A stretch of DNA of 35,820 nt, taken from NCBI GenBank assembly GCA_037431425.1, contig GCA_037431425.1_4129.3; one strand, given 5' to 3'. Source of the DNA: a phage. Both the position numbers and the translations under genes were made by a program. How positions within the stretch are numbered: the first letter of the stretch is position 1; each line of letters begins with the position of its first letter. Below, piece after piece: positions 1,754-30,614 of this stretch. The notes beneath the pieces were generated by a model that worked only from the letters and a program-made list of their open reading frames with translations, was not told the origin of the DNA and ran no database searches.

Positions 1754-1761
1754 TATTTATA
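1754..1761 (-). promoter_or_regulatory. T4-type late promoter box TATAAATA (reverse strand) upstream of the Ig-like gene
   Basis: Plus strand reads tatttata at 1754-1761, i.e. TATAAATA on the minus strand, ~38 nt before the ATG at 1716. Confidence 0.4.
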
Positions 1762-3773: not shown

Positions 3774-4526
3774 ATGATATCAGAAAAATTCATAAGTAAT
3801 GAGGGAAACAAGAGATTACTTATCATCTCAGGAGCAGGTCTTTCCGTTGAAAGTGGTATGGACCCATTTCGTTTCGATGATGGCCTATGGGATACATTTA
3901 AAATTAATGATGTATGTAATATTGCAAATTTAGATACAAAATATCATATTGTTCATTCGTTTTATAACACGCTGCGTGTTAAACTGGGTCAATGTGAACC
4001 AAATGCAATGCATTATTTTATAAAATCATTAGAGGAACAATATGGTGATTGTTTCCTTCATATGACTTCAAATATGGATGATCTTTACACCCGTATTGGC
4101 GGTAAAGAACTTAAACTTCATGGTAATTTATGTGAAGTGATAGAAAATTATAGTATTAATGGTGATGATTACAACATTGTTAACTGTGGTTATGAGCCAT
4201 ATATCCCAAAACATGATATTTTTGCTAAACCAAATGTAGTGATGATTGGTGAGTATCATCGTTATGTGGATGGTGTACGCCTACCAATATATGAAGAACG
4301 AAATAATGTCTTGAAATCCCTTGATGAAAATGATACAGTTATTGTTATTGGTAGCAGCGATACTGTTCTTGTATGGTCCCGATTGGTAGCATCATTGCCA
4401 TGTTATAGTGTCAATGTTAATATTAGAAAGAATGATAATGATTTTTTGTTTAATGAAAAAATTATCAAGCCAGCAACCAAAGCAATACCACAACTAGAGA
4501 CTATAATTAAGGAACGTATGAAATGA
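3774..4526 (+). CDS. Sir2-family (sirtuin-like) NAD+-dependent deacylase/NADase
   Basis: Sirtuin motifs GAGLS (GAGxS), TSNMD (TQNxD-like) and LHGN (HG); SD AAGGA upstream; only two Cys in the usual zinc-module position. Confidence 0.8.
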   Translation: MISEKFISNEGNKRLLIISGAGLSVESGMDPFRFDDGLWDTFKINDVCNIANLDTKYHIVHSFYNTLRVKLGQCEPNAMHYFIKSLEEQYGDCFLHMTSNMDDLYTRIGGKELKLHGNLCEVIENYSINGDDYNIVNCGYEPYIPKHDIFAKPNVVMIGEYHRYVDGVRLPIYEERNNVLKSLDENDTVIVIGSSDTVLVWSRLVASLPCYSVNVNIRKNDNDFLFNEKIIKPATKAIPQLETIIKERMK

Positions 4527-5074
4527 GTGTTAAAGAAGTTCCCTTTGGTGAATATGGTTCACGTGCAAATTTTGTATTCTGCTATTTCTTTGCAAGAGGA
4601 TGTAATCCCTACGAAAACTATGAGTTGAATGATATACCAGAAGTAAATTTAGTATTACTTCAACTACGATGGGATGGCCTTCTGGGTGGATGTGGTGGTA
4701 CAGTTGAAAGTACTGATATCTCATTAGAAGATGCGTTGCGTCGTGAAATACAAGAAGAAATGAACTACTATATTTTTGTTTCTCACTTAAAACCACTTAA
4801 AACGTTTGAAATTTACCCAGGTGCAAACAGTCATAGTTTCAGTTATGAAGTAACATATGATGAGTTAAAATACATTCGTGATGGGTATACAACTGCCAAA
4901 CATGCAAGTGCCGAAGTTGCTGGTGTAAATTTATGTCATATTTCTCGTTATTCTAAGGGACAAAATCGAGAAGCGGGATATAATAATCTTATGACACAGA
5001 ACTTCATCGGTACAGCAAAACACGAATTAGCGTATCTGGTACAAAAAGAGAACTTACTAATTAGCTATCTATAG
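4523..5074 (+). CDS. Nudix-like hydrolase (NudE-like, putative)
   Basis: GGTVESTDISLEDALRREIQEEMN resembles the Nudix box (REUxEE core), with atypical spacing between the Glu and RE; start overlaps the Sir2 stop (ATGA). Confidence 0.5.
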   Translation: MSVKEVPFGEYGSRANFVFCYFFARGCNPYENYELNDIPEVNLVLLQLRWDGLLGGCGGTVESTDISLEDALRREIQEEMNYYIFVSHLKPLKTFEIYPGANSHSFSYEVTYDELKYIRDGYTTAKHASAEVAGVNLCHISRYSKGQNREAGYNNLMTQNFIGTAKHELAYLVQKENLLISYL

Positions 5075-5084
5075 GAGTTTAAAA

Positions 5085-5405
5085 ATGTCTTACTCTATGT
5101 TTTTGGATGACATTCGTGATGCAAAACAATATTACCCTAATCAAGATATGGTAGTATGTCGTGATTTTAACAGTGCGTGTGAATATGTTGTTAAAAATGG
5201 AATTCCAGCATTTGTATCATTTGACCATGACTTGGGTGATATGAGTGGAGACGAAAAAACTGGATATTCTTTTGCTAAATTTCTTATTGATTATATGTTT
5301 GATAATAATATTAAAGAACCGTTTGAGTACTTTGTGCACAGTAGTAATCCAGTTGGTAAAGTTAACATTGAAACATACTTAAACAATGGATTTAATGCAT
5401 TATGA
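5085..5405 (+). CDS. Hypothetical protein, possibly a CheY/REC-like fold
   Basis: ORF with AGGAG SD; receiver-like spacing of acidic/Asp/Ser/Lys residues (FLDD..., VSFDHDLG, HSSNP, GK); weak. Confidence 0.5.
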   Translation: MSYSMFLDDIRDAKQYYPNQDMVVCRDFNSACEYVVKNGIPAFVSFDHDLGDMSGDEKTGYSFAKFLIDYMFDNNIKEPFEYFVHSSNPVGKVNIETYLNNGFNAL

Positions 5406-5704
5406 TTCAAACACATATTAAAAGTATCATTTGCACTATACTACTAGGTGTAGGAGTTCTATGGTTCAGTAATTATCACGAGAACACTAAGCGTACAAAT
5501 ATTCACTATAATACCGCAGAAGTTGTAAGTTTAGGACAATGTAGTGAGTCCAAATGTTCGTTCATGTACAAAACCAGTAATGGTGAAGTACGTAATGGAC
5601 TATCTAGTGAACCAGTTTCGATTGGTCAACTTGTTTACCAGGAGTGCTGGGAAGAAAAGGTTCGAGGTTCACGATGTTATGTTGAATACGAACCAAAAAT
5701 GTAA
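5402..5704 (+). CDS. Hypothetical membrane-anchored Cys-containing protein
   Basis: ATGA-coupled ORF; N-terminal hydrophobic helix. Confidence 0.5.
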   Translation: MIQTHIKSIICTILLGVGVLWFSNYHENTKRTNIHYNTAEVVSLGQCSESKCSFMYKTSNGEVRNGLSSEPVSIGQLVYQECWEEKVRGSRCYVEYEPKM

Positions 5705-5767
5705 TAATAACATGAGTCAATAATAATAGCCGGGTACAAGGATGTACTCACAATTCAAGGATGTTTT

Positions 5768-7207
5768 ATGAAAAAATATACAATTGACACAAACGTACTA
5801 CTATCTGATCCAAATGCATCTGTTGCTTTTGATGGTGCTGCAATCATTCTACCATTTACAGTACTGGAAGAATTGGATTCGATTAAGAGTCGCAATGTTG
5901 ATGTTTCACGTGATGCTCGTGTTGCGATTCGTAACATTGAAGCAATTATTGCAGAGGCATCACATAATGAGATTAGTTGTACTGGTGTTAATATTGCTGA
6001 TGTTCATACCAATATGAGTCCTGAAAGCAAATTGTTTGTTATTACAAACGAAGAAGCTGAAGCACTAATTCGTACTAAGGCAATTGAAGATAAAGTTCAA
6101 ACACTTCTCAAAAGTTCTGTACCAGATGATAAAATTATCTTAGTCGCTTTAGCAACTGATTCAGTACTGGTTACCCGTGATATCAATATGCGTATCAAGG
6201 CTCTTAGTTATGGAGTTGAAGTACAGGATTATCGTCATGATGTGGTTATCGGTGATAGCGATCTAATGCACGTAGGTCAACATCATCTCGATATCGATTT
6301 CTGGGCAGAATTCAGTGGGATTGAAAATGCTGAAATTAAATCTGAAAAAACAGGTCGCCGCCTGTATCATTATATCCCAACACATCTAATCAAAGATCTT
6401 CTTCCACAAAATCTTTGTATTGGTGACTATCTATATGATAATGCTGATGTGCTCTTTGTTTACGAAGGTCAGTCTGCAATCGAAGAAGATGATGGTAGTC
6501 TAACACCAGAAGATATTTTGGTCTTCCAAGATATTGGTCAATCTGTTGCATTACGTGCTAATGTATGGGATATTAAAGCGAAGAATGTCAAACAAGCACT
6601 AGCTATTAATAGTATTCTCGATCCCGATGTACATCTAACAGTTCTACTAGGTTCTGCTGGGACGGGCAAAACACTAATTACGATTGCTACTGCACTAGAG
6701 TTAGTTCTGGAAAAACGTAAATACGACCGTATTATCTTCTCTAAAACACAAGATTCACAGTTTGAAGATATCGGATTCTTGCCTGGTTCAGAGGCCGAGA
6801 AAGTGATTCCATTTTGTGGTCCAGCGATTGACGCACTAGAGTACCTACATAAAGATGATGCAAATCCACAAGGTAGCATTGAGGAAATCATGAAACGTAA
6901 TGTTATCCAGTTCAAAGCATTGAACTTTATTCGTGGTCGTTCTTTTGCCAATACAATTCTAATTGTGGATGAAGCACAGAACTTAACACCAGCCCAGCTA
7001 AAAACTGTCTTGACAAGAGCCGGAGAAAACTGTAAAGTAATCATACTTGGTAACCTAGCACAGATCGATAACAAGTTTATCAGTCCAGTAAACAGCGGTC
7101 TAACTTATGTAACTGAGAAATTTAAAAATTGGTCTGGTTGTCGTATCATTGAATTGGAAGGTGTTGTTCGTTCACCACTTGCTGAATTTGCTGAAGAAAA
7201 TATGTAA
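5768..7207 (+). CDS. phoH: PIN-domain / PhoH-like ATPase fusion (PhoH2/YlaK-type)
   Basis: N-terminal PIN-like YTIDTNVLL...; Walker A LGSAGTGKT; PhoH-like IVDEAQNLT and GNLAQID; SD AAGGA upstream. Confidence 0.85.
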   Translation: MKKYTIDTNVLLSDPNASVAFDGAAIILPFTVLEELDSIKSRNVDVSRDARVAIRNIEAIIAEASHNEISCTGVNIADVHTNMSPESKLFVITNEEAEALIRTKAIEDKVQTLLKSSVPDDKIILVALATDSVLVTRDINMRIKALSYGVEVQDYRHDVVIGDSDLMHVGQHHLDIDFWAEFSGIENAEIKSEKTGRRLYHYIPTHLIKDLLPQNLCIGDYLYDNADVLFVYEGQSAIEEDDGSLTPEDILVFQDIGQSVALRANVWDIKAKNVKQALAINSILDPDVHLTVLLGSAGTGKTLITIATALELVLEKRKYDRIIFSKTQDSQFEDIGFLPGSEAEKVIPFCGPAIDALEYLHKDDANPQGSIEEIMKRNVIQFKALNFIRGRSFANTILIVDEAQNLTPAQLKTVLTRAGENCKVIILGNLAQIDNKFISPVNSGLTYVTEKFKNWSGCRIIELEGVVRSPLAEFAEENM

Positions 7208-7211
7208 TATT

Positions 7212-7244
7212 GTATGGGACAATATGTCCCATACATGATATAAT
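7212..7244 (+). promoter_or_regulatory. Perfect 9-bp-stem palindrome overlapping a promoter (-35-like GGGACA, extended -10 TGaTATAAT)
   Basis: GTATGGGAC-AATAT-GTCCCATAC at 7212-7234 with no U-tract, followed by TGATATAAT at 7236-7244. Confidence 0.45.
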
Positions 7245-7276
7245 GCTGTTATCATAATACAGAAGGAGATAGTAAA

Positions 7277-7480
7277 ATGGCTAAACAACCTAAGAAAAAA
7301 GAACCAGTAGCTAAAGTTAAAAAAGCAAAAGTTATTACATCCACAGAACAACGTATGTACGAACAACGTATGTACGAACAACGTAAGAGTGAAACACTTT
7401 CTGGTCTACAAGCTCTTCGCAAACAAGGAGTTCTAACTCGTGCACAATATCGTAAGTTGGTAACACAAAAAGGTTATTGA
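7277..7480 (+). CDS. Small lysine-rich basic protein
   Basis: 67-aa ORF with strong SD (AGAAGGAGA); contains a tandem EQRMY-EQRMY repeat. Confidence 0.6.
   Translation: MAKQPKKKEPVAKVKKAKVITSTEQRMYEQRMYEQRKSETLSGLQALRKQGVLTRAQYRKLVTQKGY
7344..7373. repeat. Exact 15-bp tandem duplication inside the CDS
   Basis: gaacaacgtatgtac x2. Confidence 0.8.
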
Positions 7481-7582
7481 TACATTTGAAGTAATATTAT
7501 GGGGTTCTTAATAAATAACATTATAAGAATAATAATACTTTTTATTAAATTAAAAAGAACTCCATGTGTTATTTCAGTTTTT

Positions 7583-7610
7583 ATCCCTGTCGGTTGGCAG
7601 GGATTTTTTC
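7583..7610 (+). terminator. Rho-independent terminator
   Basis: ATCCCTG-tcggttgg-CAGGGAT followed by TTTTTT. Confidence 0.65.
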
Positions 7611-7705
7611 TATCTATGTATTGACAAAAGGATTAATTTATGAGAACATGTATAAAAGGCCGTATGACATTCCATTAGGTTATTTTTAACTTAAAGGAGA
7701 TATAT

Positions 7706-8263
7706 ATGTTTTTTGACCAAACATTTACGTTGTACCATGATTCTGGTAAAGTTGAGATTATTGAAAATCTATTACAGTACATTGCAGATCATGATGGTGT
7801 TGAACGTTTCCATAGTAAGATGAAATTCGATTTAGCTGAATTCAACAAAAAGAATCGTGAAACTTTTTGGAAGAACCGATTCTATTATGAAATGTTTCCA
7901 GAAAGGTTTGTTGGTTATTATCTTTGTACTGAGAAAGGTTTATTAGTATCTCCAGATTTACTTATGGGTGAATACATGGTTCTCTATAATGAGTACTGGA
8001 AAAATAAACGTAACGCTCGTGACATTGAGTGGAGACATAAGCGTTCGTACATGTACAAACACAACCACTCCCGATACAAACGTCCTAAGACTCAACAAGA
8101 GCGTCGTATGGCGTGTGCAGTACTGAAGGACGAGGGGGAACCTGAAATACGTGGAAGACGTAAGATGCGTTCATTACCATCGTATTGGAACGATATCAGA
8201 ACAAGACATAGTACCGGATGGAAATACAGTACTAAGCGTAAAAAACAATACAAAGGGGGCTAA
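7706..8263 (+). CDS. Hypothetical protein with highly basic C-terminus
   Basis: ORF with AAGGAG SD; Arg/Lys-rich tail. Confidence 0.6.
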   Translation: MFFDQTFTLYHDSGKVEIIENLLQYIADHDGVERFHSKMKFDLAEFNKKNRETFWKNRFYYEMFPERFVGYYLCTEKGLLVSPDLLMGEYMVLYNEYWKNKRNARDIEWRHKRSYMYKHNHSRYKRPKTQQERRMACAVLKDEGEPEIRGRRKMRSLPSYWNDIRTRHSTGWKYSTKRKKQYKGG

Positions 8264-8290
8264 TGCTCCCTATTTTATAGGTTAAACGTT

Positions 8291-8620
8291 ATGAGCAAAA
8301 TTAATGTTGATGTAGATATTGGTTATATTGAAATTGAACCGTGTAGTATTGATACAATGATTGACACTCTTAGTAAGTACCGTGCAGAGTACAGGGGGCA
8401 TATTAGTATTTCACCAGACGGTGGTTACGGTGGATTCCATGGATACAATGTGATTTGGTCCAGAGAAGAAACAGACGAAGAATATAATACACGAATTGAA
8501 GCTGAATCTAAAAGACGTGAAGAAATTGAACGTCAAGAAATGAAACACTTAATGAACAAGAAATCATTAAGTACCGAAGAGAAATATAAACTGCTAAAAT
8601 ACATCAAGGATTACATGTAA
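8291..8620 (+). CDS. Hypothetical protein
   Basis: ORF in the operon frame; weak SD. Confidence 0.5.
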   Translation: MSKINVDVDIGYIEIEPCSIDTMIDTLSKYRAEYRGHISISPDGGYGGFHGYNVIWSREETDEEYNTRIEAESKRREEIERQEMKHLMNKKSLSTEEKYKLLKYIKDYM

Positions 8621-9270
8621 TGAAAAATGTAACACAAGAAAAGATTCTATACCTTGCAAAATATAATGGTGGTTTCAATATCATTAGCCGTGAGTACCAT
8701 GGTAATTTGGCTAAGTTGATTGACAGTTTGTTAGAATTTGATTTCATTAAATGGGAAACTAATGAACTTTGGTACGAATATGCTGGTCAGCAATGGGAAA
8801 GTGACTACGATCATGCAATTCATACGTATACAATCACTAAAAGTGGTGAAGTATGTTTAGCTATCATGCGTTGTGCATATACTTACAAACATCACAAAGG
8901 TGAAGAAAAGCATATTCGCAGAAACGAAGAATTACTTCACCTAATGGGTGAAGCTGGTATTACAATGCATGACTTGTTCAATGAACCAAGATGGACTAGA
9001 ACTCTTACTAAAGCTGAATATAAATCATTACGATACATTGATGAACAAAGCAACACCCCAGATGAAATTGATGATGTTAGTGATGATGAACTAAGCCTCA
9101 AAAATGTATTTGAAAGTACCAGCACTGAAAGTATTACTGATATTTCAGTACAGATGGCACTAAAAGCAATGGAACTTTTCAAGACACAATATGAAGGGCA
9201 CAGTGCTGAAGAAGTAGAGCGTGAGTTCATTACACGTGTACAGATTGCATTGTTCCAATCGAAAAAGTAA
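8620..9270 (+). CDS. Hypothetical protein
   Basis: TAATG stop-start coupling with the upstream ORF. Confidence 0.55.
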   Translation: MKNVTQEKILYLAKYNGGFNIISREYHGNLAKLIDSLLEFDFIKWETNELWYEYAGQQWESDYDHAIHTYTITKSGEVCLAIMRCAYTYKHHKGEEKHIRRNEELLHLMGEAGITMHDLFNEPRWTRTLTKAEYKSLRYIDEQSNTPDEIDDVSDDELSLKNVFESTSTESITDISVQMALKAMELFKTQYEGHSAEEVEREFITRVQIALFQSKK

Positions 9271-9367
9271 ATTTTTACTTGTACTAATCGCAGTTCTTAT
9301 GGTATTATCTTGTTCAGTTAGTAATGGTAAACCATCAATTGAGTACTTATGTATAGGTGATTAAATT

Positions 9368-9601
9368 ATGAAATTTATTTCTATAGCAATTATTTCAGCA
9401 CTCATGATGTTAGTAACAGGATGTGCACCTAAAGTTGATGAGATGGATGCTGAAATCATCCGTCAAGGTTTAACAAAACTAAATCACCAAGGAACACTAT
9501 ACGCATGTCATACTATGCGTCATGGGCAAGATCTTAATCTCATGTGCAGGAAGATTGTGAACCGCAAACGTCTTAATACTGTTCCGAAGGATGCACAATG
9601 A
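9368..9601 (+). CDS. Putative lipoprotein
   Basis: Signal peptide with lipobox-like LVTGC; SD AGGTGA. Confidence 0.5.
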   Translation: MKFISIAIISALMMLVTGCAPKVDEMDAEIIRQGLTKLNHQGTLYACHTMRHGQDLNLMCRKIVNRKRLNTVPKDAQ

Positions 9602-9768
9602 AAGAAATAATTGGCTACAAATGTAAAAATTGTGGCAAAGTTCAGGGTAAGCATTCAGTACAAGGTAAGGCTTGTCCAAATCCAGGACGTGGTAATTTCA
9701 GAGGGTTCAGTACTGAAAAGTCTTATGAACCTGATTATTCAAAACCAGTGATGGGCTATAAGTTATGA
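9598..9768 (+). CDS. Small Cys-rich (zinc-ribbon-like) protein, 56 aa
   Basis: Not in the ORF track (<60 aa). ATG 9598 overlaps the upstream stop, SD GAAGG 7 nt upstream, stop overlaps the next start; CxxC...C pattern. Confidence 0.4.
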   Translation: MKEIIGYKCKNCGKVQGKHSVQGKACPNPGRGNFRGFSTEKSYEPDYSKPVMGYKL

Positions 9769-10124
9769 GTGATTATGTGGCATTTCTTCATCGATATGGT
9801 GAAGCTAAAGAAAAACATATTATTCGTATGCCAGTATATGGTGAAAAAGACTGGTACAAAAGCACTATCAGTGTAGGTGCATTTCGTAACCGTGAATCTG
9901 AATTCTTTCTTGGTAAGCAACATGAACGCGAGGTACTTTGCTCACTTTGGCGTTTAGATGAATGGGATAGTGAAAATTCCAGAACGGCTGAATCAATGAT
10001 GGCTATTGTTGGTATTGCGAACTATCAGCACCCATATGATCTATTACCTACATTTGAACATGCTTCTTTGTTTGACTTTTACAAAGCAGTAGGGTATGAT
10101 TATAAAAAGAAACGTTACATTTAA
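9765..10124 (+). CDS. Hypothetical protein
   Basis: ATGA-coupled ORF. Confidence 0.5.
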   Translation: MSDYVAFLHRYGEAKEKHIIRMPVYGEKDWYKSTISVGAFRNRESEFFLGKQHEREVLCSLWRLDEWDSENSRTAESMMAIVGIANYQHPYDLLPTFEHASLFDFYKAVGYDYKKKRYI

Positions 10125-13898: not shown

Positions 13899-15704
13899 GT
13901 GCAATTGAATAAATTATACACGGACGTAACGAATTTTCTAAACCAGAGTAATACTGATCTTACAAATGAAAACGCAAATAAAGATGCCAAATGTGTAAAT
14001 ACACACAGAGATTTACTTGCTGGTATCTTATCTAAACATTATTCACAAGATGTTATTCCAAAGGATCTAATGCAGTGGCACAATGATGGATATGGTCACA
14101 TTCATGATTTGGACTACTATATTAGTCCATTAACAAACTGTTGTTTGGTTAATTATCCAGATATGCTTAAACATGGGTTTACTATCGGGTGTGCTAAAAT
14201 CGAAGAACCAAAGAGTTTTAGTGTAGCATGTACGGTGCTAACACAGATTGTACAAGCTGTTGCAAGTTCCCAATATGGTGGTCAATCGTTGGCTCACATT
14301 GATGTCGGATTGGAACCTTATGTACAAAAGTCTTGGGAAAAGTTATTAGAAAAACAAAAGAAATATAATCTAAGCGATGATTTTATTGAAGAAGAATTAC
14401 GAAAAGAAGTATATGATGGGTGTCAAACATTACTATATCAGACCAATTCAATGATTAGCACTAATGGACAAGCTGCATTCATTTCTCTTAGTTTAGGACT
14501 TAATACTTCCAAATTTGGAAAATTAATCACTGAACAGTACTTGAAAGTTCACGAGAATGGTTTAGGTAAAGATAAGATTACACCAGTGTTTCCTAAAGTT
14601 ATTTTCTTTCTACAAGATGGTATTAACATGAATGTCAATGATAGTAATTATGATCTTAAACAGTTAGCTATGCGTTGTGCATCAAAAAGAATCTATCCAG
14701 ATTTTGTTTCAGTACCATTAAATCATAAAGTGACGGGAAGTAGTAGCACTGCGGTAACACCGATGGGCTGTCGTTCATTCTTAGGAAAATGGGAAGATTC
14801 AAATGGAAATGAACAATACAACGGTCGCTTCAATTTAGGTGTAGTTTCTATCAATTTACCACTAATTGCTCTTGAAAGTGCCTCAGATGGAGAGTTTTTT
14901 GATAAAATAGACGAGCATATGAATATTGCATATCGTGCTCAGATGAACCGCGTAGAGCGTTTAAAAGGTACAAAAGCGAAACAGAATCCAATTTTGTTTA
15001 TGGAAGGTGCATTAGCACGTTTAAGTGCAGAAGAAACTATTGACAAGCTATTTTACAATGGTTATGCTAGTATTAGTATTGGTTATGTTGGACTTGTTGA
15101 ATGTTCGGAAATCCTCACTGGTTCTATCAGTAAGGAGTTTTGTATGTCAGTACTGAATTATATGAAAGTAAAATGCGATGAGTTCAAAAAAGAAAGTAAT
15201 ATTGCTTTTAGTCTATATGGAACTCCAGCAGAGTCGCTTTGTTATAAATTTGCACGTTGCATTGAAGCAAAATATCCTTCAGTTCTCAAACGAGATTTCA
15301 TTACAAATTCATTCCATCAACCAGTATGGGTTGAAAGTTCCGCTTTTGAAAAGTGGGATTATGAGGAAAACTTTGCGTATCTAAGCAATGGTGGGAATAT
15401 TAGCTATGTTGAAACACCAAACCTGGCTAATAATATACAAGCACTTGAAACATTGATCAATTATGCATATGATAAAATTCCATATTTTGGAATTAATCAG
15501 AAAGTAGATAAGTGTTTTGAATGTAATTTTGAGGGAGAATTTAGTGTAGATAAAAATGGTTTTCATTGCCCTGTATGTAATAACAGAAATGAGCGAACAA
15601 TGTCTGTTATACGTAGGGTATCTGGATATCTTAGTGCACCAAATAGTCGCCCGTTTAATAAAGGTAAACAAGCTGAAGTAATTCAGCGTATACAGCATAT
15701 GTAA
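13899..15704 (+). CDS. nrdD: Anaerobic ribonucleoside-triphosphate reductase (class III RNR)
   Basis: 601 aa; C-terminal glycyl-radical motif RRVSGYLS and zinc-ribbon CFECNF...CPVCNN; overall layout as in T4 NrdD; GTG start with AAGGAG 6 nt upstream; no intron interruption. Confidence 0.9.
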
Positions 15705-15715
15705 GGAGATATATT

Positions 15716-16078
15716 ATGTCAATTCAAGGTAAACAAGTAATGTCAGGTGAGCACATCGGAACCATCATGCTGGTGGATAATGATATTGCACGTATTATTG
15801 TATCTAAAACATTTTCAGAAAATGATGAAGTTCTTTTGAGTACTTTTGACGGCGAAGAACTTCGTGACGTTCAGGTTAAACATGAACCTGGTATTGAAGG
15901 TGGTCAGCATTTGAATGTAAATGTTCTATCTAAAGAACAACTCATTGATGCACAAAATAACCCTGAAAAGTATCCACAGCTTACTATTCGTGTTAGTGGT
16001 TATGCAGTACGTTTCAATTCACTAACAAAAGAACAACAAGATGATGTAATTTCTCGTACATTCACAAAAGAACTATGA
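15716..16078 (+). CDS. grcA: GrcA/YfiD-like autonomous glycyl-radical cofactor
   Basis: 120 aa; [10 protein letters not shown] and [22 protein letters not shown] closely match E. coli GrcA; SD AAGGAG. Confidence 0.8.
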
Positions 16079-16861: not shown

Positions 16862-16889
16862 TATTACAGAAATGTGGAAATATATGAAG

Positions 16890-16913
16890 AAGCACCCTTT
16901 GGGTGCTTTTTTT
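16890..16913 (+). terminator. Rho-independent terminator
   Basis: AAGCACCC-ttt-GGGTGCTT followed by TTTTTTT. Confidence 0.75.
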
Positions 16914-16920
16914 ATAATAT

Positions 16921-16928
16921 TATAAATA
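16921..16928 (+). promoter_or_regulatory. T4-type late promoter box TATAAATA
   Basis: Exact TATAAATA 32 nt upstream of the ATG at 16960. Confidence 0.55.
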
Positions 16929-16959
16929 CACTATGAATATCTAGATAGAAGGGATATAT

Positions 16960-19659
16960 ATGGCAAATAAAATATATGGTGGTATTGATGTTACACACAA
17001 TGTCACAGTAAAAGGTAAGAGAAGTGCTCAGAGCATCAATGATGACGTATTTGATGAAAACGGTAATCTCACAATAGATGCATATACACAAGATGATATG
17101 TTAGAAATGGTTGGTATGTTACCAATTTCTCGTTATGGTACACAAAACTATCTACCTGCTGGTGTTAATGGTACAACAGTTGGTTCTTCAGAAAATGTGA
17201 ATTCCAGAAATACAAAATTATTTTTAGAAGATGATAACACTTTAGTAATGTTACGTCCAGGTACTAATGGTAGTACTCAAGGTGTTTATTATAGTTATAT
17301 GACCCAAGCAGTAGGTACAACAAATACAAGTCGTATGGTTAATACTACTCGTGCATATAAACCCAATTACTTTGGTGCAGCATACGCAGTTTATTTGTAC
17401 CCAAGTAGTAATGATATTACTTGCGGTTTAGTGAGAATGGAGAATACCGATGGTACATATGTTGATAAAGTTTTTGTGTCAGATAATAATGGTACATTGA
17501 ATGATGCAATGCACACTGGTATTATTCTATCAGATCATACAGCAGTACAACCTTTTGGTGCAATACAATTTGTTATTCGTGCAGAAGATGGTGCATTATA
17601 TTTTTTTAGTTTAGATACACCAAATAATACTCTTAAAATATCCGTCACTAAAGTTACTTTTAGTCCAAGTAATAACCCAGGTGGTGGTACTTATAGTATT
17701 ACTAGAATTACTGGTTGGACTACAAGAACTTTTTATAATGCAATGATAGCTGATGAGAACATTGTTCCTACGATGAAAATAAATTCAACAAATGCCAATG
17801 ATACTCCATACGTTTTAATTCCAAGCGGTATTATTGGGTTTGGTGTTTATATGACAGATCCAGATTTATATGTTGCACAGAAATCAGGTACATCTACATT
17901 CAAATTTAGATTATGTGGTGATATGTGGGTGAGTAATGGTAGATATGACATACGACCACAACATAGTTTTAGTATGACTTTTGATGTTGCAACGAAGCAA
18001 TGTGCACTCGATAATATGACAACGACTGCACCTGTTGCTGTTTATGACAATGGTTCTAGCATGAATGCAACTGGACCTTGCTTGACAACTGACCCATTTT
18101 ATCTTCATGCAGGTGCACGTAATATTTTCAGTAATTATTGCTATGTTCCATCAACAGGGGATGCGTTTTGTTCATTTTCACCAAACCTAGCAGAACCATT
18201 GAATGTATCATATGCAAAATACCCACCAAAATCTTTATTTGATTTGATGGATGTTAGAAGTGTGTCAGCAACTAATTTTATTAATGGTGTAGTATCACCA
18301 AGATTTGGTTCAGCAGTTGGTTCATACCAAGTAGGTGTAGAGTTATTACCAAATAACAGTACTAAACAATATTCAAGACGTTCTGGTGATGGTCGTTTTT
18401 TTCCATCCTATGCTGTTCATAAATCTACACCCAACTTTACATTCAAGTCGTTGAATTATGGTACAGTACCTGGTTATGAACCAACACCTGACCGAAATTT
18501 CATAACCACACCAGAATCACGCATTTTTATAAGTTCAATATCTGGTTCAAACGTCACTACTAATGGTGGTGTTTTGGTTGCTGACATTAGAACATCAACA
18601 CCAATTAGTTTTGATTATAAAGGTAATGTACTGAATAATGGTACAATCAGTATGTCTCAAGATATAATGAATGCTATTAGGAATTCAGAATTTGCTAAAG
18701 TTGCTGGTTCTTGGGATATATCCCCAGCATCAGTAAAAACATTATCAGTTTTCGTTCCACAACAAACTGATATTCCTGTTTTCGCGGTTCTTGCTGCAAC
18801 AACTAATTCCAGAGGACTATATATTCGTATGATTGAATTAGGTGTTAATACAAGAACAGGAGATATTACAACGTGGGCATTTAAACGTTTAGTACATGAA
18901 AGTGTTCAAGCTCTGGATTACAAAACTGATGCCGGATATTATCTTGATAGTGGAAGTATTGGTATTACTATATATGATGCTGGTTCTTTTTACTTCATTG
19001 GTGGTGGTATTCCAGGTTTCTTTCCTACAGTTGGTAATACAGCTTCACCTTTTTTTCGTGCTACTGTAGATAAAGCAAGTAAGCAATTTAATAATTTCCA
19101 TATAGCTGGTTATCGTCCCATCTATGCATTAGACGGTCAACCGTTCGCTTTACCTGGTATTGGATTTGGTATTCTTCAAAGTATAGATCTTCAAAACAAA
19201 ACCATTTTTAGAACATATGGTACTACATTAGAAGATTATAATGCATGGACTGATAAAGGGAATCCATTCATTTGCGTTGTTTCACAAGACGTTGCTCAAG
19301 GTTTTATTATATACTTCACCGAAGAGACACCAGTACTGATATCTGGTAAGCACTATACGTTACCAATATCAAATATTGATTTAACAAAAGTGAAAGCAAA
19401 TCCTGCGAATACTACATTTTATGTGTATATTAAATTAGTGCAGGGTATTGCAAAGTATCATATATCAACAACTGAATTAGCTGAAACTCAGTCAATATTC
19501 TGGATTGGTACAGTGAAAACTAATGATTTACAAATAACCGAAATTAATATCGTTAAACGTTCGCGTTTAGATCTGTTTGGTGCATCCTATGACGCTGCCG
19601 GAAGTTCATTCCCAGTTAGTTCTGGTTTTCCTTCAGGTTCTGGCAATGTGAATTGGTAA
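16960..19659 (+). CDS. Large late protein (899 aa), paralog A; probable virion fibre/adhesin-like protein
   Basis: Late-promoter-driven; N-terminal MLPISRYGTQNYLP and C-terminal module SQDVAQGF...SSGFPSGSGNVNW shared with the other two operon members. Confidence 0.7.
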   Translation: MANKIYGGIDVTHNVTVKGKRSAQSINDDVFDENGNLTIDAYTQDDMLEMVGMLPISRYGTQNYLPAGVNGTTVGSSENVNSRNTKLFLEDDNTLVMLRPGTNGSTQGVYYSYMTQAVGTTNTSRMVNTTRAYKPNYFGAAYAVYLYPSSNDITCGLVRMENTDGTYVDKVFVSDNNGTLNDAMHTGIILSDHTAVQPFGAIQFVIRAEDGALYFFSLDTPNNTLKISVTKVTFSPSNNPGGGTYSITRITGWTTRTFYNAMIADENIVPTMKINSTNANDTPYVLIPSGIIGFGVYMTDPDLYVAQKSGTSTFKFRLCGDMWVSNGRYDIRPQHSFSMTFDVATKQCALDNMTTTAPVAVYDNGSSMNATGPCLTTDPFYLHAGARNIFSNYCYVPSTGDAFCSFSPNLAEPLNVSYAKYPPKSLFDLMDVRSVSATNFINGVVSPRFGSAVGSYQVGVELLPNNSTKQYSRRSGDGRFFPSYAVHKSTPNFTFKSLNYGTVPGYEPTPDRNFITTPESRIFISSISGSNVTTNGGVLVADIRTSTPISFDYKGNVLNNGTISMSQDIMNAIRNSEFAKVAGSWDISPASVKTLSVFVPQQTDIPVFAVLAATTNSRGLYIRMIELGVNTRTGDITTWAFKRLVHESVQALDYKTDAGYYLDSGSIGITIYDAGSFYFIGGGIPGFFPTVGNTASPFFRATVDKASKQFNNFHIAGYRPIYALDGQPFALPGIGFGILQSIDLQNKTIFRTYGTTLEDYNAWTDKGNPFICVVSQDVAQGFIIYFTEETPVLISGKHYTLPISNIDLTKVKANPANTTFYVYIKLVQGIAKYHISTTELAETQSIFWIGTVKTNDLQITEINIVKRSRLDLFGASYDAAGSSFPVSSGFPSGSGNVNW

Positions 19660-19669
19660 TGGAGAGAAT

Positions 19670-20260
19670 ATGTCTTATAAATTTAGAGCAGATGTGGAAG
19701 CTTATGCTTCCGTTAAATCACAAGGAAAAAATACTGGGACCACGATAACTGTTCGTTCTGGTAATGTGTATCAAGCTGATGCAAATGGGAATATTGATAT
19801 ACCAGTCATGAGTACAGATGATGTGAATTACATTACCAGTTCGTTTCCGTTATCACAATTTGGACCACTTTACAGTGATGAACCATTAGGTATTACTTCT
19901 GCGGGTTTCAATTTAACTTTCAGCAAAGAATTACCGTTATTCATGGCGGGAGCGGCGTATACCCTCCCAGCAAAAACAATAACAGATCCTGGTGTTTCTG
20001 GTACTAATATTGAAACACATTATGTATATGTTATATTAGATGTTGGGGTAGCTGACTACCTCATTTCTAAAACTCAACGACCTGAAAGTAGTGTTAATAT
20101 GTACATCGGAAAACTAACAGTTTTCCCAGATGGCATTACAGGGGTCAGTATAAATAAAGTGTCAAGATTTGACAACTTCAGAGTAAGTTCTACAAAAATT
20201 GGTTCAGCTATCCCTATCAGTTCTGGTTCACCAGATGTGAATGGTATGATAGAATGGTAA
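19670..20260 (+). CDS. Late protein (196 aa), paralog B; corresponds to the shared C-terminal module
   Basis: C-terminal ...HYVYVILDVG...YIGKLTV...NKVSRF...ISSGSPDVNGMIEW aligns with the C-termini of paralogs A and C; SD GGAGAG. Confidence 0.65.
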   Translation: MSYKFRADVEAYASVKSQGKNTGTTITVRSGNVYQADANGNIDIPVMSTDDVNYITSSFPLSQFGPLYSDEPLGITSAGFNLTFSKELPLFMAGAAYTLPAKTITDPGVSGTNIETHYVYVILDVGVADYLISKTQRPESSVNMYIGKLTVFPDGITGVSINKVSRFDNFRVSSTKIGSAIPISSGSPDVNGMIEW

Positions 20261-20270
20261 AGGAATATAT

Positions 20271-23012
20271 ATGGCTTCTAGACGAATTATAGGAAACGCA
20301 GATATACTAGGGAATTTAAAAATTAATGGAAAGTATGCATTACGTTCCCTTAATGGTGTTCCTGCTGACTCTGCTGGTAAAATCACTTATCAATATTATG
20401 ACAAAGCGGAAGTAAATCAGATGTTTGATATGCTTCCAGTTTCAAGGGTAGGTGATCAAGATTACCTACCAATGAGTATTAACGGAACTTTTGAAGGTGC
20501 TTCTTCCTTTTCATTTGCAAAAATAATGCAACCTTGTATCATTGAAAATGATGGTACTGGTGTAATTTTACGTGCAGGTACAAATGGAAGTTCTTATGGT
20601 TACTATTATACTTATATTAAAAATATAAGAGATATAGAAACACTAACTCAAGATAATATAATTACAACCAATACGATGTATAGACCGTCTGTGCTACCAA
20701 GTACTGATTACATTTATGAATTTTATGGGTCAAATGCATATGAATTACTATTTTGGGAATCAACTGATAGAACATCATATTACCTTACATTAACAAATGA
20801 AACATTGAATGAATCAGCACACAAGCATTGCAGAATTCCAAAAACAGCAATAACAAATAAACCAATATATGCACACATCGTAAATGATTCAGTTTATATA
20901 TGGTGTATGGATTCAAGTGTATTTAGTAGTGTTCGCGGGTGTGCATTTATTATATACACAGTACCTTTAACTGCATTTAATACTGGTTCAGTTTCTACCG
21001 TAACACAGATTGGTGGTTATTCAGGAAGAACTATAAGAGATGCAACATATACTGCATCTAATAATATTCGCGTTTATGATAGCTATTCTATTTTAGGTTC
21101 AGGTGGTGATGCACTAATAGTATATGATAATGGTGTTTCCAGAATAGATTATTGGGAAAATAACGTATTTAATACCCAAGCAGTTCTTAGCCCAGATGGT
21201 ACAAAAATAAGAGTTGCGATCTATCCAGGATTCCGTGTTTTCACTGAAACAAAAACATCTAGTGTATATGCACTTGGTATTAGCTTTACATATGATATCA
21301 GTACTAAAACAATGACACTTGATGGTTCTGAACGTGGTCCAATCAGAGTATCAGCTAATACATCAACTGGTAGTATAACAGTAAGAAACCCGTTTTCAAT
21401 CAATATGGAAAACTTTACAGGGTTTTATGACGGTGCACTTGGCAACTATGGTTCAATCTGTCAAACTTCTGATGGTTTTGTTTTCACTACCAAAGCAAGA
21501 TGGACATCCACACCAACATATGCAGTACAAACATACAAAGTTTCTGGTACACCTTATGATAGTTGGGTCGCTAAAACACGTACTGCTAGTAATTTAAAAC
21601 GTGTCGAAGTAATGCCAGTTTATGGCTCCCCTGTCGGTGAAAACTTAATAGGTGTTCGTTTCGTAGATAAACGTAAGATACTTGTTGCATGTTCTGGCAC
21701 TGCTGATGGAATTTCTTATGGTTATGATAGTACAGTTTTTACTGAAATAGGTGAGAATCCGACTTATGTTTATAAAAACTTGGAACAAAATACCACAATG
21801 AATGGTTTTGCACCATCAAGTAATAGACACTATTTAAGTACTGATTACAAATATGCAGGTATGATAACATTGGTTGATGCAAATGGAAATGTCAGCACTT
21901 ATGGTTCTTCGTTAATAGAAGACATCGATAAACCAGCGTATGGAAAATTCGACCCAGTTACAATGGACTTCGACAGTAATAGATATGAAATTTCAGGAAC
22001 AACATTATCAAGTATAGGTGATAATGCAATTGCTAAAGCTGGATTGTCTGGAATAACTGATCATAAAACTGTTTTTTATTATGTACCTGATACTACATAT
22101 TCTAAATCGATTGCAGTCACTTCTGCATTAAACGGTACTACCAATGTGTGTTATATTATTTTTTCCGAAATATCATGTAGTGCAGTTGGTACAAGTGGTA
22201 CTATAATTTTACGTGGTATTAATGTTGATACAGCAAGATATACATCAATGACGAATACATACCAAATTTCACCAAATGAAATGGTCAAACGTTGGGCTGG
22301 TATGACGGTTTCTAAGTTTAATGGTTTTAACTACTTAGGCGTGAACATTTTATATGGCATTGATACCCCAGGTTGGACTCGTTATCCTAACATGATTGCT
22401 AAAGTGAAAAATGGTATTATTTCAAGTCAACGATATATGGAAACAACTTATATTTCAAACGCACAATTTGATATAGGTACAATTCCAGGGATTGGGTTTG
22501 GATATTACCAAATGAACAAAAACGATTATCAAACTAAATCAGTTTTTGCTGTATGTGGTACTACTGAAGCAGATATGGATAAACTAATATCTGGTAATGA
22601 AACGATATCACAGTACTTAGTTGTTGCTTCTCAGGACGTGGCACAAGGGTTTCATGTATACTTTTCACAAGAAGTACCAGTTTTCTTGGGTGGAAAGTTT
22701 GCAAAGATACCACCGACTATGATAGACTTATCTACTATAAGTACTACACCAGAGAATTCAACATTCTACATATATGCGGTGATGGATAGAGATACATCCA
22801 CAGCATCGTATCAGATATCACTACATCAATTATCAGAAACTATGACATCAACATACATTGGTAAGATAGTAACTAATAATAATGGTATTGCATCAATCGA
22901 GTCTGAAAAAGTTTCCAGATTCTTGCTATACCGTCCAAGTACCTACAATCGTGGTTCTGCGATCCCAGCAAGTTCTGGTGTTCCGTCAGGAACAGGTACA
23001 CGTTGGAATTAA
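20271..23012 (+). CDS. Large late protein (913 aa), paralog C; probable virion fibre/adhesin-like protein
   Basis: N-terminal MLPVSRVGDQDYLP and C-terminal SQDVAQGFHVYF...SSGVPSGTGTRWN collinear with paralog A. Confidence 0.7.
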   Translation: MASRRIIGNADILGNLKINGKYALRSLNGVPADSAGKITYQYYDKAEVNQMFDMLPVSRVGDQDYLPMSINGTFEGASSFSFAKIMQPCIIENDGTGVILRAGTNGSSYGYYYTYIKNIRDIETLTQDNIITTNTMYRPSVLPSTDYIYEFYGSNAYELLFWESTDRTSYYLTLTNETLNESAHKHCRIPKTAITNKPIYAHIVNDSVYIWCMDSSVFSSVRGCAFIIYTVPLTAFNTGSVSTVTQIGGYSGRTIRDATYTASNNIRVYDSYSILGSGGDALIVYDNGVSRIDYWENNVFNTQAVLSPDGTKIRVAIYPGFRVFTETKTSSVYALGISFTYDISTKTMTLDGSERGPIRVSANTSTGSITVRNPFSINMENFTGFYDGALGNYGSICQTSDGFVFTTKARWTSTPTYAVQTYKVSGTPYDSWVAKTRTASNLKRVEVMPVYGSPVGENLIGVRFVDKRKILVACSGTADGISYGYDSTVFTEIGENPTYVYKNLEQNTTMNGFAPSSNRHYLSTDYKYAGMITLVDANGNVSTYGSSLIEDIDKPAYGKFDPVTMDFDSNRYEISGTTLSSIGDNAIAKAGLSGITDHKTVFYYVPDTTYSKSIAVTSALNGTTNVCYIIFSEISCSAVGTSGTIILRGINVDTARYTSMTNTYQISPNEMVKRWAGMTVSKFNGFNYLGVNILYGIDTPGWTRYPNMIAKVKNGIISSQRYMETTYISNAQFDIGTIPGIGFGYYQMNKNDYQTKSVFAVCGTTEADMDKLISGNETISQYLVVASQDVAQGFHVYFSQEVPVFLGGKFAKIPPTMIDLSTISTTPENSTFYIYAVMDRDTSTASYQISLHQLSETMTSTYIGKIVTNNNGIASIESEKVSRFLLYRPSTYNRGSAIPASSGVPSGTGTRWN

Positions 23013-23019
23013 TTTTAAA

Positions 23020-23046
23020 GCTCGTCTATTGACGGGCTTTTCTTTT
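23020..23046 (+). terminator. Rho-independent terminator ending the late operon
   Basis: GCTCGTC-tatt-GACGGGC (one G-U pair) followed by TTTTCTTTT. Confidence 0.6.
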
Positions 23047-23057
23047 GTGTGTATAAT
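23029..23057 (+). promoter_or_regulatory. sigma70-like promoter (-35 TTGACG, 17-bp spacer, -10 TATAAT) overlapping the terminator
   Basis: TTGACG 23029-23034, TATAAT 23052-23057; strong SD AGGAGG follows. Confidence 0.55.
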
Positions 23058-23080: not shown

Positions 23081-23647
23081 ATGGTCAAATCATTACTACC
23101 ACCACCAAAACGACATAAAATTAAAGAAATGAAAGAACAACGTACATTAAAGATGTACAACAATTTAGTTAATTTACTTTGCAAAAGTCCATCACTCAAA
23201 GAAATATTCACCACAGATGATGATCGTAATGCACTTATTGAGATGAAGTATATGCTCAGTAAAATGTCCTTTTACAAATTTGTCAAAGAATACTCAACTG
23301 AACCATTCAGTCCTCGTTGGCGAGTCAAACCAAGAGAGTATTTTTTCGGTGGTTCATATACTGATATCATTCAAGATACGGTGATAGGCGTAGAGTTCGA
23401 GATTGATTATGAGCCTAATGGTGTGGAAAACTGGCAGATTGACAAGCATTTACCAAGTGAAGATGAAATTTATGTTTATGCAAGAAAACAGTCAACTTTC
23501 AGTTCAAAAATTGCTCTTAATAATTTAGATTCATTTATTATTTTCTATACATTTGTCGGTGTAGATAAAATGGCAACTAAACTCAATGAATTATCATTGC
23601 AACAAAAACAGATTAATGCATACAAAGACATTACAGATTTATACTAA
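23081..23647 (+). CDS. Hypothetical protein, small-paralog family member 1
   Basis: 188 aa; shares SLKEI..TDDDR..L...KY.LSK and a downstream Trp motif with the next two ORFs. Confidence 0.6.
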   Translation: MVKSLLPPPKRHKIKEMKEQRTLKMYNNLVNLLCKSPSLKEIFTTDDDRNALIEMKYMLSKMSFYKFVKEYSTEPFSPRWRVKPREYFFGGSYTDIIQDTVIGVEFEIDYEPNGVENWQIDKHLPSEDEIYVYARKQSTFSSKIALNNLDSFIIFYTFVGVDKMATKLNELSLQQKQINAYKDITDLY

Positions 23648-23659
23648 TGAGGATTGGAT

Positions 23660-24175
23660 ATGTTTTTTGGACCAATTAGAAAACAAAACAGTACTTTAAT
23701 TTGGCATGAAATCATCTTTAAAATTATATCTAAAAGCTACTCACTGAAGGATATTATCAACACAGATCAAGATAGACGTATCCTTTTAGATGCAAAATAT
23801 AAATTGAGCAAACACCCGTTACTTTCTTTAATCATTGATTACGTTAATGATTATGAATCCAGTCGTTGGAAGTGGGAAGACGGAGGTTTATTTCGTGGAA
23901 AAACATTCTACGGTGCAGAACGATATGTATTCAGTGATACAACAAATGGTGTTAAGTTTGCTATTAGAAACTTTAACTCAAAAGAAAATGATTATCTTGA
24001 AAGTGGAGTTAAGGTGTATATAGATAATAATAGCAATGTGCTTACATATGACGAATCACTAATTATGTTACAAATAATGCGTGGAGTTGAAGGTGTAAGA
24101 CGCAATCTTACTAAGTTGAAAATTCAGCAAAATGATATGCATAATAGACAGAAAATTAAGGGTTTATATAAATGA
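23660..24175 (+). CDS. Hypothetical protein, small-paralog family member 2
   Basis: Track starts at TTG 23654; first ATG is 23660 with GAGG 7 nt upstream; family motif SLKDI..TDQDR..LLDAKYKLSK. Confidence 0.55.
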   Translation: MFFGPIRKQNSTLIWHEIIFKIISKSYSLKDIINTDQDRRILLDAKYKLSKHPLLSLIIDYVNDYESSRWKWEDGGLFRGKTFYGAERYVFSDTTNGVKFAIRNFNSKENDYLESGVKVYIDNNSNVLTYDESLIMLQIMRGVEGVRRNLTKLKIQQNDMHNRQKIKGLYK

Positions 24176-24681
24176 TTTCATTTTTCAAAAAGAAAAAAAA
24201 AGTTGATGAAACAGGATTAGAATCGTTTCTATGGACTCTTATCATCAAAAAAAGTCCATTGATGAAAGAATATGCTATCAATGATGCTAATAGAAAAACT
24301 ATCATTGAATACAAATACGAATTATCAAAATGTGATCCAATCGTTTATCACTTTGCGAAGTACTGTTCTAAAAATTTATCGGATATCACGATTGAACACG
24401 AGTCAGTACCAATGAGTTTTCCTTATGGTAATTGGGTAGATACTTTTGATATTTTTGATGGTTCAAATGGTTTCAGATTCTTTTACTCGTCAAATAAAGC
24501 AAATGTTCGTATTAAAACAGAGATAGGTTGGACACAGCATAGCTCAAATAAAGAAGATTATAATTTACTAGCTGACGTATACCGAAGTGTGAAAAATTCA
24601 AAGGATATTGATGAAAGAATTAAAAAGCAAAATAGTATTACTTTATCACTTGAAACATATAAGTCAAAGTATGGTGGTTAA
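24172..24681 (+). CDS. Hypothetical protein, small-paralog family member 3
   Basis: ATGA coupling; family motif LMKEYAINDANR..IIEYKYELSK. Confidence 0.55.
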   Translation: MISFFKKKKKVDETGLESFLWTLIIKKSPLMKEYAINDANRKTIIEYKYELSKCDPIVYHFAKYCSKNLSDITIEHESVPMSFPYGNWVDTFDIFDGSNGFRFFYSSNKANVRIKTEIGWTQHSSNKEDYNLLADVYRSVKNSKDIDERIKKQNSITLSLETYKSKYGG

Positions 24682-30147: not shown

Positions 30148-30155
30148 TATAAATA
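30148..30155 (+). promoter_or_regulatory. T4-type late promoter box TATAAATA
   Basis: Exact TATAAATA 18 nt upstream of ATG 30174, with AAGGAGAG SD between. Confidence 0.5.
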
Positions 30156-30173: not shown

Positions 30174-30614
30174 ATGGAAAATATTGAAAATTTGAGACAT
30201 GTTATGGATTTTATCATTGATACTGAAGAAGATAGTGCTTATGATGAAATCCTACTAACTTTTATTGAAAATAGTTTGTTTTTAAGTTCTGCTGCACATA
30301 ACTGGCATTTACAAAGCCGATTCTATACTAAGCATCTTCAACTGGATGAACTATACAAAGAGTTACCTGAGTATGTTGATGCATTTGTAGAGGGTATTAT
30401 GAACACACGCGGTGCATTACAGGTAGGAACTGGTAACAGTTATCGTTTTACCCCTATCGAAGATTGTGTACCAATTCTTGAAGAATATGCGAGTCAATGT
30501 AAAGCCATTCATGCTATGCTTGAGGAAGCTGAAGACTATGGCAGTACTAACACATTAGAAGATATTATGAGTTTTGTAGACGGTGTGCTTTACAAACTTA
30601 AAGTTTTACAATAA
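30174..30614 (+). CDS. Dps/ferritin-like four-helix-bundle protein (late)
   Basis: AAHNWHLQSRFYTKHLQLDELYKEL...DAFVEGIMNTRGA parallels Dps ...[28 protein letters not shown]...DEIAERIRALGG. Confidence 0.55.
   Translation: MENIENLRHVMDFIIDTEEDSAYDEILLTFIENSLFLSSAAHNWHLQSRFYTKHLQLDELYKELPEYVDAFVEGIMNTRGALQVGTGNSYRFTPIEDCVPILEEYASQCKAIHAMLEEAEDYGSTNTLEDIMSFVDGVLYKLKVLQ

Follow-up and report, generated by a model that had tools for sequence, protein, structure and literature searches.

What three tandem paralogous genes contribute to a jumbo phage particle is the question raised by the locus described here. It lies in a 35,820-nucleotide (nt) stretch of phage DNA (contig GCA_037431425.1_4129.3 of GenBank assembly GCA_037431425.1), referred to in its entirety as the window, and comprises three co-oriented open reading frames (ORF1 to ORF3) of 899, 196 and 913 amino acids (aa), all on the + strand, as an earlier note made from the sequence alone had proposed. 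We consider it probable that the trio is a baseplate-attached set of three paralogs akin to phage receptor-binding proteins (RBPs), possibly heteromeric, in which a conserved module docks and the heads face the host. The window shares 99.2% DNA identity with Escherichia phage ph0011 and 91.7% with phage A4 and, judged by this identity, is DNA of an Asteriusvirus jumbo myophage of the RaK2-like group infecting E. coli; the T4 setting implied by the earlier note was thus wrong. Both ph0011 and A4 are Asteriusvirus jumbo myophages with genomes of ca. 350 kb. The trio proteins are already present in databases as hypothetical proteins, and their class is already known.

In line with the earlier note, ORF1 and ORF3 are paralogs that align collinearly from end to end (26% identity, E = 3e-54), and ORF2 shows 36-37% identity to the C-terminal 120 residues of both. 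The 196-aa protein had been described as the C-terminal module alone. This did not hold up, because a profile from which ORF2 was excluded hits both of its ends (E = 6e-6 at profile positions 1-60, E = 3e-32 at 783-902) and its FPLSQFG segment aligns with the invariant LPxSRxG. By these alignments, ORF2 is an N module joined to a C module with the centre missing. Conservation within the family peaks at aa 61-120 and 781-913, and E92, R101, H184, R314 and R519 are invariant, the C module being the most conserved part. The C module is also common to phages of many host genera, and both features fit a role in assembly better than one as a host-specific tip. All members share the C-terminal tail G-[SA]-[SA]-[IF]-P-x-S-x-G-x-P-S-x-x-G-x-x-x-W, which is disordered in monomer models and may represent a docking peptide. 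In the window, the tail motif is found at 19606-19656 (ORF1), 20209-20257 (ORF2) and 22959-23009 (ORF3). A tail with W as its last residue is kept from RaK2-like phages to RAY gp18, while EL gp115 and RAY gp19 extend past the motif.

The AlphaFold2 model of ORF3 (predicted local distance difference test score, pLDDT, 83.6; predicted template-modelling score, pTM, 0.79) is nearly all-beta and matches beta-propeller lectins and glycosidases. Foldseek searches with this model returned the multi-propeller protein DDB1 and the RBPs of phages phi11 and 80alpha, all with low template-modelling scores (TM-scores), and the ORF2 model reached a pLDDT of ca. 90 over aa 71-170. The N helix and N strand of ORF3 fall at aa 45-52 and 57-60. 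The models suggest a beta-propeller-like centre for the long proteins and, for the C module, a resemblance to the shoulder of phage RBPs and TssK, i.e. a beta-sandwich-plus-helix fold like the p2 RBP shoulder. This fold occurs in p2, 1358, A-1(L), SPP1 gp22 and TssK, and in RBPs and TssK this domain trimerises and grips a baseplate protein by one of its loops (PMC7291167, PMC6300606, PMC10966104). Structure prediction, which the earlier note had recommended as a check, therefore yielded two folds known from receptor-binding proteins. Of its fibre or adhesin idea, the modular paralogs and RBP-type folds were borne out; fibres or beta-helices were not, the models being globular and all-beta. At the sequence level, comparison of the C-module alignment with PDB and Pfam profiles gave no support for the shoulder link. 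Likewise, PDB sequences yielded zero matches to profiles of the full alignment or of the isolated C module, and Pfam searches with the C and N modules gave noise only. Pfam and NCBIfam scans of the three proteins returned nothing useful, with DUF5484 as the only, sub-threshold, hit.

Published mass spectrometry of orthologs, which answers the earlier note's call for a virion proteome, argues that ORF1, ORF2 and ORF3 are virion proteins. The ORF1 ortholog gp323c was found in the virion proteome of phAPEC6 (PMC7247149 Table 1), and CBB_148 and CBB_149 were likewise detected by mass spectrometry, with the CBB table grouping both with CBB_147 as paralogs. The phAPEC6 record (MK817115) carries no coding sequence (CDS) for the ORF2 and ORF3 orthologs (4346-4981 and 4872-7727), and ca. 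2.8 kb there holds only a 114-nt CDS. Because these genes are unannotated in the record, the phAPEC6 proteome could not report their products.

A link to baseplate fibres comes from phiKZ-like phages. In RAY gp19, EL gp115 and SPN3US gp168, the family body starts at LPxSRxG and follows a ca. 250-aa N domain homologous to that of phiKZ gp131 (E = 1.4e-20 for RAY gp19, 8e-14 for EL gp115 and 3e-6 for SPN3US gp168). SPN3US gp169 also shows N-domain homology (E = 5e-8), and the match of RAY gp20 is short and weak (E = 2.6e-4). Our family profile (A1) matches RAY gp20 (E = 6e-176), RAY gp19 (3e-127), EL gp115 (7e-54) and SPN3US gp168 (5e-37). RAY gp18 consists of the gp131 N domain and the C module without the body, so that Erwinia phage RAY, like the window, encodes one short and two long paralogs. 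In phiKZ, the gp131 N domain anchors 12 baseplate fibres, and the fibre base is a hetero-hexamer of three gp131 copies with gp133, gp134 and gp135 (PMC13250141). Mutant proteomics identified SPN3US gp168 as a tail protein, which establishes tail association only (PMC5105663). The EL and RAY clusters further adjoin a central spike gene carrying the GpV Apex motif. Direct homology of the trio to phiKZ gp131-135 was considered and dropped, as four hidden Markov models (HMMs) detected no similarity to the trio body or C module (E > 0.4). Using the gp131 N domain of RAY gp19 as query, 287 phage records were found, including four Escherichia phages, of which the one listed is Goslar. Since four Escherichia records are far fewer than the ca. 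35 Asteriusvirus genomes, RaK2-like phages appear to lack this domain.

A tree of C modules resolves three orthologous lineages: ORF1 with phAPEC6 gp323c and CBB_147; ORF2 with its unannotated phAPEC6 ortholog and full-length CBB_148; and ORF3 with CBB_149. The triplication is therefore old. The second lineage is the fastest-evolving one and lost ca. 720 central residues in Asteriusvirus-like phages, across which the short form is ca. 44% identical. Three lineages in the same order are likewise present in phAPEC6 (gp323c), CBB (CBB_147/148/149), GAP32 (gp143-145) and 121Q (gp499-501). These orthologs carry hypothetical or structural labels, and in phAPEC6 and CBB they also lie downstream of nrdG. 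CBB, GAP32 and Serratia BF differ in that their middle gene is full length (ca. 916 aa), whereas the 196-aa headless form is found in Asteriusvirus and the Salmonella 7t3/Munch group. An exhaustive profile search yielded 603 cluster representatives, of which 292 scored E <= 1e-30. RaK2-like phages infecting Escherichia, Salmonella, Cronobacter, Pectobacterium, Serratia, Yersinia, Erwinia and Xanthomonas encode full-length homologs, and many phiKZ-like (Chimalliviridae) phages additionally have the C module. The family corresponds to PHROGs 3573, 7449 and 26864, none with known function; ORF1 (E = 2e-197) and ORF3 (E = 2.5e-209) match the phrog_3573 profile over its full length, and ORF2 matches phrog_26864 (E = 8e-47). 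RaK2 gp098, a baseplate RBP whose gene lies outside the fibre cluster, was rejected as a possible counterpart, since it has 595 aa and a different architecture and since the CBB table lists no RaK2 homolog of the trio.

Several annotations in ph0011 (OP557969) resemble spurious transfers, among them the 'T5orf172 domain' on the ORF1 ortholog, the 'major capsid protein' on a 188-aa ORF and the 'GPW-gp25 domain' on thymidine kinase, and none of these labels was reproduced by the Pfam scans run. In CMSTMSU (MH494197, 'UNVERIFIED_ORG'), the trio orthologs at 3887-9849 are fragmented into numerous short CDSs, of which two bear the label 'minor tail protein'; this splitting most likely results from frameshift sequencing errors. 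A 1705-aa relative, P0173, carries a weak match to the phage tail fibre repeat PF03406, which is a hint only; PF03406 was not found in the N modules of RaK2-like members.

Because terminators flank it on both sides, its spacers are 10 nt each and its promoter box is conserved, the trio is a self-contained transcription unit, probably a late one. The hairpin on the nrdG side lies directly 3' of that gene (dG -16.8 kcal/mol, z -5.1), and its stem is kept in phAPEC6 and CMSTMSU while the loop varies. Behind ORF3, the intrinsic terminator reported in the earlier note was recovered as a second hairpin (dG -14.4, z -5.7), and a sigma-70-like promoter marks the downstream boundary of the block. The two spacers, between ORF1 and ORF2 and between ORF2 and ORF3, hold ribosome-binding sites. 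The exact TATAAATA box noted at 16921 is indeed present. The (T/C)ATAAATACA block, the preceding hairpin and the ribosome-binding site are all conserved upstream of the phAPEC6 and CMSTMSU orthologs, yet the ORF1 proteins of these phages are only ca. 53% identical to window ORF1. The RaK2-like phage CBB carries an ATAAATA motif before structural genes and encodes a gp55-like sigma factor (PMC5259590). The paper on the Sharanji phage contains neither proteome nor transcriptome content. What stood of the 'late operon' of the earlier note is a single unit behind a T4-late-type box; its late timing we infer from the box.

According to the mechanism we propose, the block would be transcribed as one late unit from its (T/C)ATAAATA box. 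Each chain would begin with a short N-terminal adaptor (aa 1 to ca. 55) followed by a shoulder-like domain, formed by the conserved C module and probably also by the N-module helix and the LPxSRxG strand. This domain would form a trimer and dock on a baseplate component, as in the p2 and 1358 RBPs, the A-1(L) long tail fibre and TssK. In case of ORF1 and ORF3, the ca. 720 residues between N strand and C module (beta-propeller plus beta-sandwich) would constitute an outward-facing head that binds, or perhaps cleaves, a host surface glycan, while ORF2 would be a head-free version of the same scaffold. The three proteins would act in one assembly, possibly a heteromer, with the phiKZ fibre base of paralogs gp131, gp133, gp134 and gp135 as precedent; one shared assembly is probable in view of the age of the three lineages and their constant co-occurrence. 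A more specific form of this proposal, which we put forward as speculative and unlikely, is an obligate heterotrimer or higher heteromer. Here, a 'split' shoulder (N strand/helix plus C sandwich) would carry an inserted 720-residue propeller head, two headed chains would combine with one headless chain, the W-ending tail would dock, and RaK2-like (ORF2) and phiKZ-like (RAY gp18) phages would have evolved this 2+1 design independently of each other. If true, such a heterotrimer with a split shoulder would be a receptor-binding architecture undescribed in any phage.

Several observations weigh against a baseplate-attached, RBP-like set. The shoulder-like module of the trio is C-terminal (ORF1 aa 778-899, ORF3 aa 790-912) with the head before it, whereas in known RBPs it is N-terminal. 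The propeller matches are generic, no Asp-box pattern was found in the trio proteins and no ligand site was identified; further, hhalign detected no internal repeats, blade repeats or propeller duplication, and Pfam and NCBIfam gave no propeller family signature. Comparison across relatives, likewise suggested by the earlier note as a check for a hypervariable centre, revealed a collinear, moderately divergent one instead (mean pairwise identity 0.24-0.5). Mutual information between N region and C module was enriched (18 of the 40 top partners against 6.7 expected). However, one subfamily-marker column dominates, so that this covariation is confounded by subfamily signal and is not decisive support for packing of the N strand/helix on the C module. 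In phAPEC6, the gp323c signal is weak (4 peptides, 5.6% coverage; PMC7247149 Table 1). Within the AT-rich window, the TATAAATA octamer is not enriched (4 copies against 7.3 expected). The block is surrounded in the window by nucleotide-metabolism genes and small genes of unknown function and lies apart from other tail genes. Lastly, a location at the baseplate periphery is established only for phiKZ gp131 (PMC13250141), that in RaK2-like phages being putative. On balance, the receptor-binding reading of the earlier note is partly supported, with receptor binding itself still something we infer.

The heads could belong to virion-borne enzymes in which the propeller is a catalytic glycosidase or depolymerase (sialidase or GH-like) acting on capsule, lipopolysaccharide or biofilm polysaccharide and not a lectin-type binder, which we regard as an unlikely alternative. 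For ORF2, a role as assembly chaperone or adaptor is conceivable, i.e. as a headless decoy that aids trimerisation of ORF1 and ORF3 and leaves afterwards, comparable to the tail-fibre assembly proteins whose genes adjoin fibre genes. Its small size (21 kDa), its location between two large fibre-like genes and the fast evolution of its lineage would suit such a role, as would SPP1 gp22, a stand-alone shoulder-like protein without a confirmed place in the virion (PMC7291167). However, the full-length ortholog CBB_148 was detected in virions, ORF2 retains the conserved tail at its C terminus as well as the residues that are invariant in its structural paralogs, the comparable short protein of Ea35-70 carries a virion structural protein annotation, and the phiKZ fibre base itself includes short paralogs (PMC13250141). 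A chaperone function thus seems improbable to us.

Instead of being a receptor-binding device at the baseplate, the trio might form or anchor the unusual 'hairy' whiskers or collar decorations that phAPEC6 and CBB display on sheath and capsid. The genes for these appendages are unassigned in both phages (PMC7247149; PMC5259590), and the trio comprises virion proteins of unknown location encoded away from the main tail module. This explanation is nevertheless highly improbable given that the models are globular and all-beta instead of ca. 119 nm filaments, that the family spans RaK2-like and phiKZ-like phages and that its chimallivirus members are fused to a baseplate-fibre anchor domain and adjoin a spike gene. 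Catalytic heads, an ORF2 chaperone and anchors of sheath 'hair' are all less well supported than the baseplate RBP-like set, which we retain. The coordinates of the locus are compiled below.

Table 1. Features of the three-gene locus and its boundaries in window coordinates.
Feature	Position (nt)	Strand	Description
Upstream intrinsic terminator hairpin	16886-16913	+	AAGCACCC-TTT-GGGTGCTT plus T run; closes nrdD/nrdG unit
TATAAATA box	16921-16928	+	Exact; candidate T4-type late promoter, 32 nt before ORF1 ATG
ORF1	16960-19659	+	899 aa, 98 kDa; long paralog, lineage 1 (phAPEC6 gp323c / CBB_147)
ORF1 N module	16960-17145	+	aa 1-62, ends in invariant LPxSRxG; N-module HMM E = 3e-28
ORF1 C module	19291-19656	+	aa 778-899; predicted shoulder-like beta-sandwich and conserved tail ending in W; C-module HMM E = 3e-52
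ORF2	19670-20260	+	196 aa, 21 kDa; headless paralog, lineage 2 (ortholog of full-length CBB_148)
ORF2 modules	within 19670-20260	+	N module aa 1-69, C module aa 74-196
Second TATAAATA	20149-20156	+	Inside ORF2, 115 nt before ORF3; internal promoter or chance
ORF3	20271-23012	+	913 aa, 100 kDa; long paralog, lineage 3 (CBB_149)
ORF3 central body	20457-22637	+	aa 63-789; predicted nearly all-beta, beta-propeller-like, then helix and beta-sandwich region
ORF3 C module	22638-23006	+	aa 790-912; C-module HMM E = 1e-46
Downstream intrinsic terminator	23017-23050	+	Closes three-gene unit; hairpin 23017-23040
Sigma-70-like promoter	23029-23057	+	TTGACG-17-TATAAT, 11/12; overlaps trio terminator; starts next unit

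Other parts of the window were annotated as well. At 13899-16078, NrdD (601 aa) has its own glycyl-radical domain (aa 480-581) and is followed after 11 nt by a separate 120-aa ORF that constitutes a second glycyl-radical domain (PF01228, E = 1e-17). This ORF resembles the GrcA/YfiD 'spare part' of pyruvate formate-lyase and lies here beside a phage anaerobic ribonucleotide reductase; next come a DUF4326 gene and nrdG. The sigma-70-like promoter drives three tandem small paralogous ORFs of 188, 173 and 169 aa (23081-24681; first against second E = 1e-15, second against third E = 3e-4), which share the N-terminal motif 'KSxSLKxI..D.DR..L...KY.LSK' and have no Pfam match. Two more intergenic TATAAATA boxes, each located just 5' of an ORF, are candidate late promoters: the one at 1754-1761 (-) precedes an ORF at 1246-1716 on the minus strand and the one at 30148-30155 (+) precedes an ORF (30174-30614) with the annotation starvation-inducible DNA-binding protein (Dps-like). 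A PIN-PhoH fusion of 479 aa is encoded at 5768-7207. The phAPEC6 virion proteome includes a 53-kDa PhoH-like protein, gp341c, to which the window protein is only a possible counterpart. Rfam and tRNA scans of the window returned nothing.

RaK2-like jumbo coliphages are considered for therapy, yet the majority of the proteins in their virions lack an assigned role. Only in the Klebsiella branch, where the trio family is absent, is the adsorption apparatus known. The link to gp131-type fibres and to the RBP/TssK docking fold provides a concrete, testable host-recognition candidate in Asteriusvirus and its relatives. Among known systems, the lactococcal p2 and 1358 RBPs and the type VI secretion protein TssK have an N-terminal shoulder followed by neck and head and no sequence similarity to the trio, in which the head is apparently inserted before the shoulder-like module and a conserved W-ending tail follows it. 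Staphylococcus phi11 Gp45 and the 80alpha RBP are alike in being baseplate RBPs with a central beta-propeller platform (Foldseek E = 7e-5 to 2e-4), but differ in domain order and termini, with TM-scores of 0.14-0.20 and no sequence similarity. SPP1 gp22 likewise has no sequence similarity to the trio, lacks paralogous long partners and is of unknown role (PMC7291167). The gp131 family (phiKZ gp131-135; SPN3US gp168 and gp169; EL gp114-116; RAY gp18-20) resembles the trio in its tandem, unequal paralogs with shared terminal modules, which are virion tail proteins with a beta-propeller in their distal part. Over body and C module, ORF1 and ORF3 have true homologs in RAY gp19, RAY gp20, EL gp115 and SPN3US gp168, and the headless layout of ORF2 recurs in RAY gp18. 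The difference lies at the N terminus, where the gp131 family has a ca. 250-aa domain and the window proteins carry a 55-aa N module, so that two distant jumbo-phage groups place one fibre body behind different anchoring domains.

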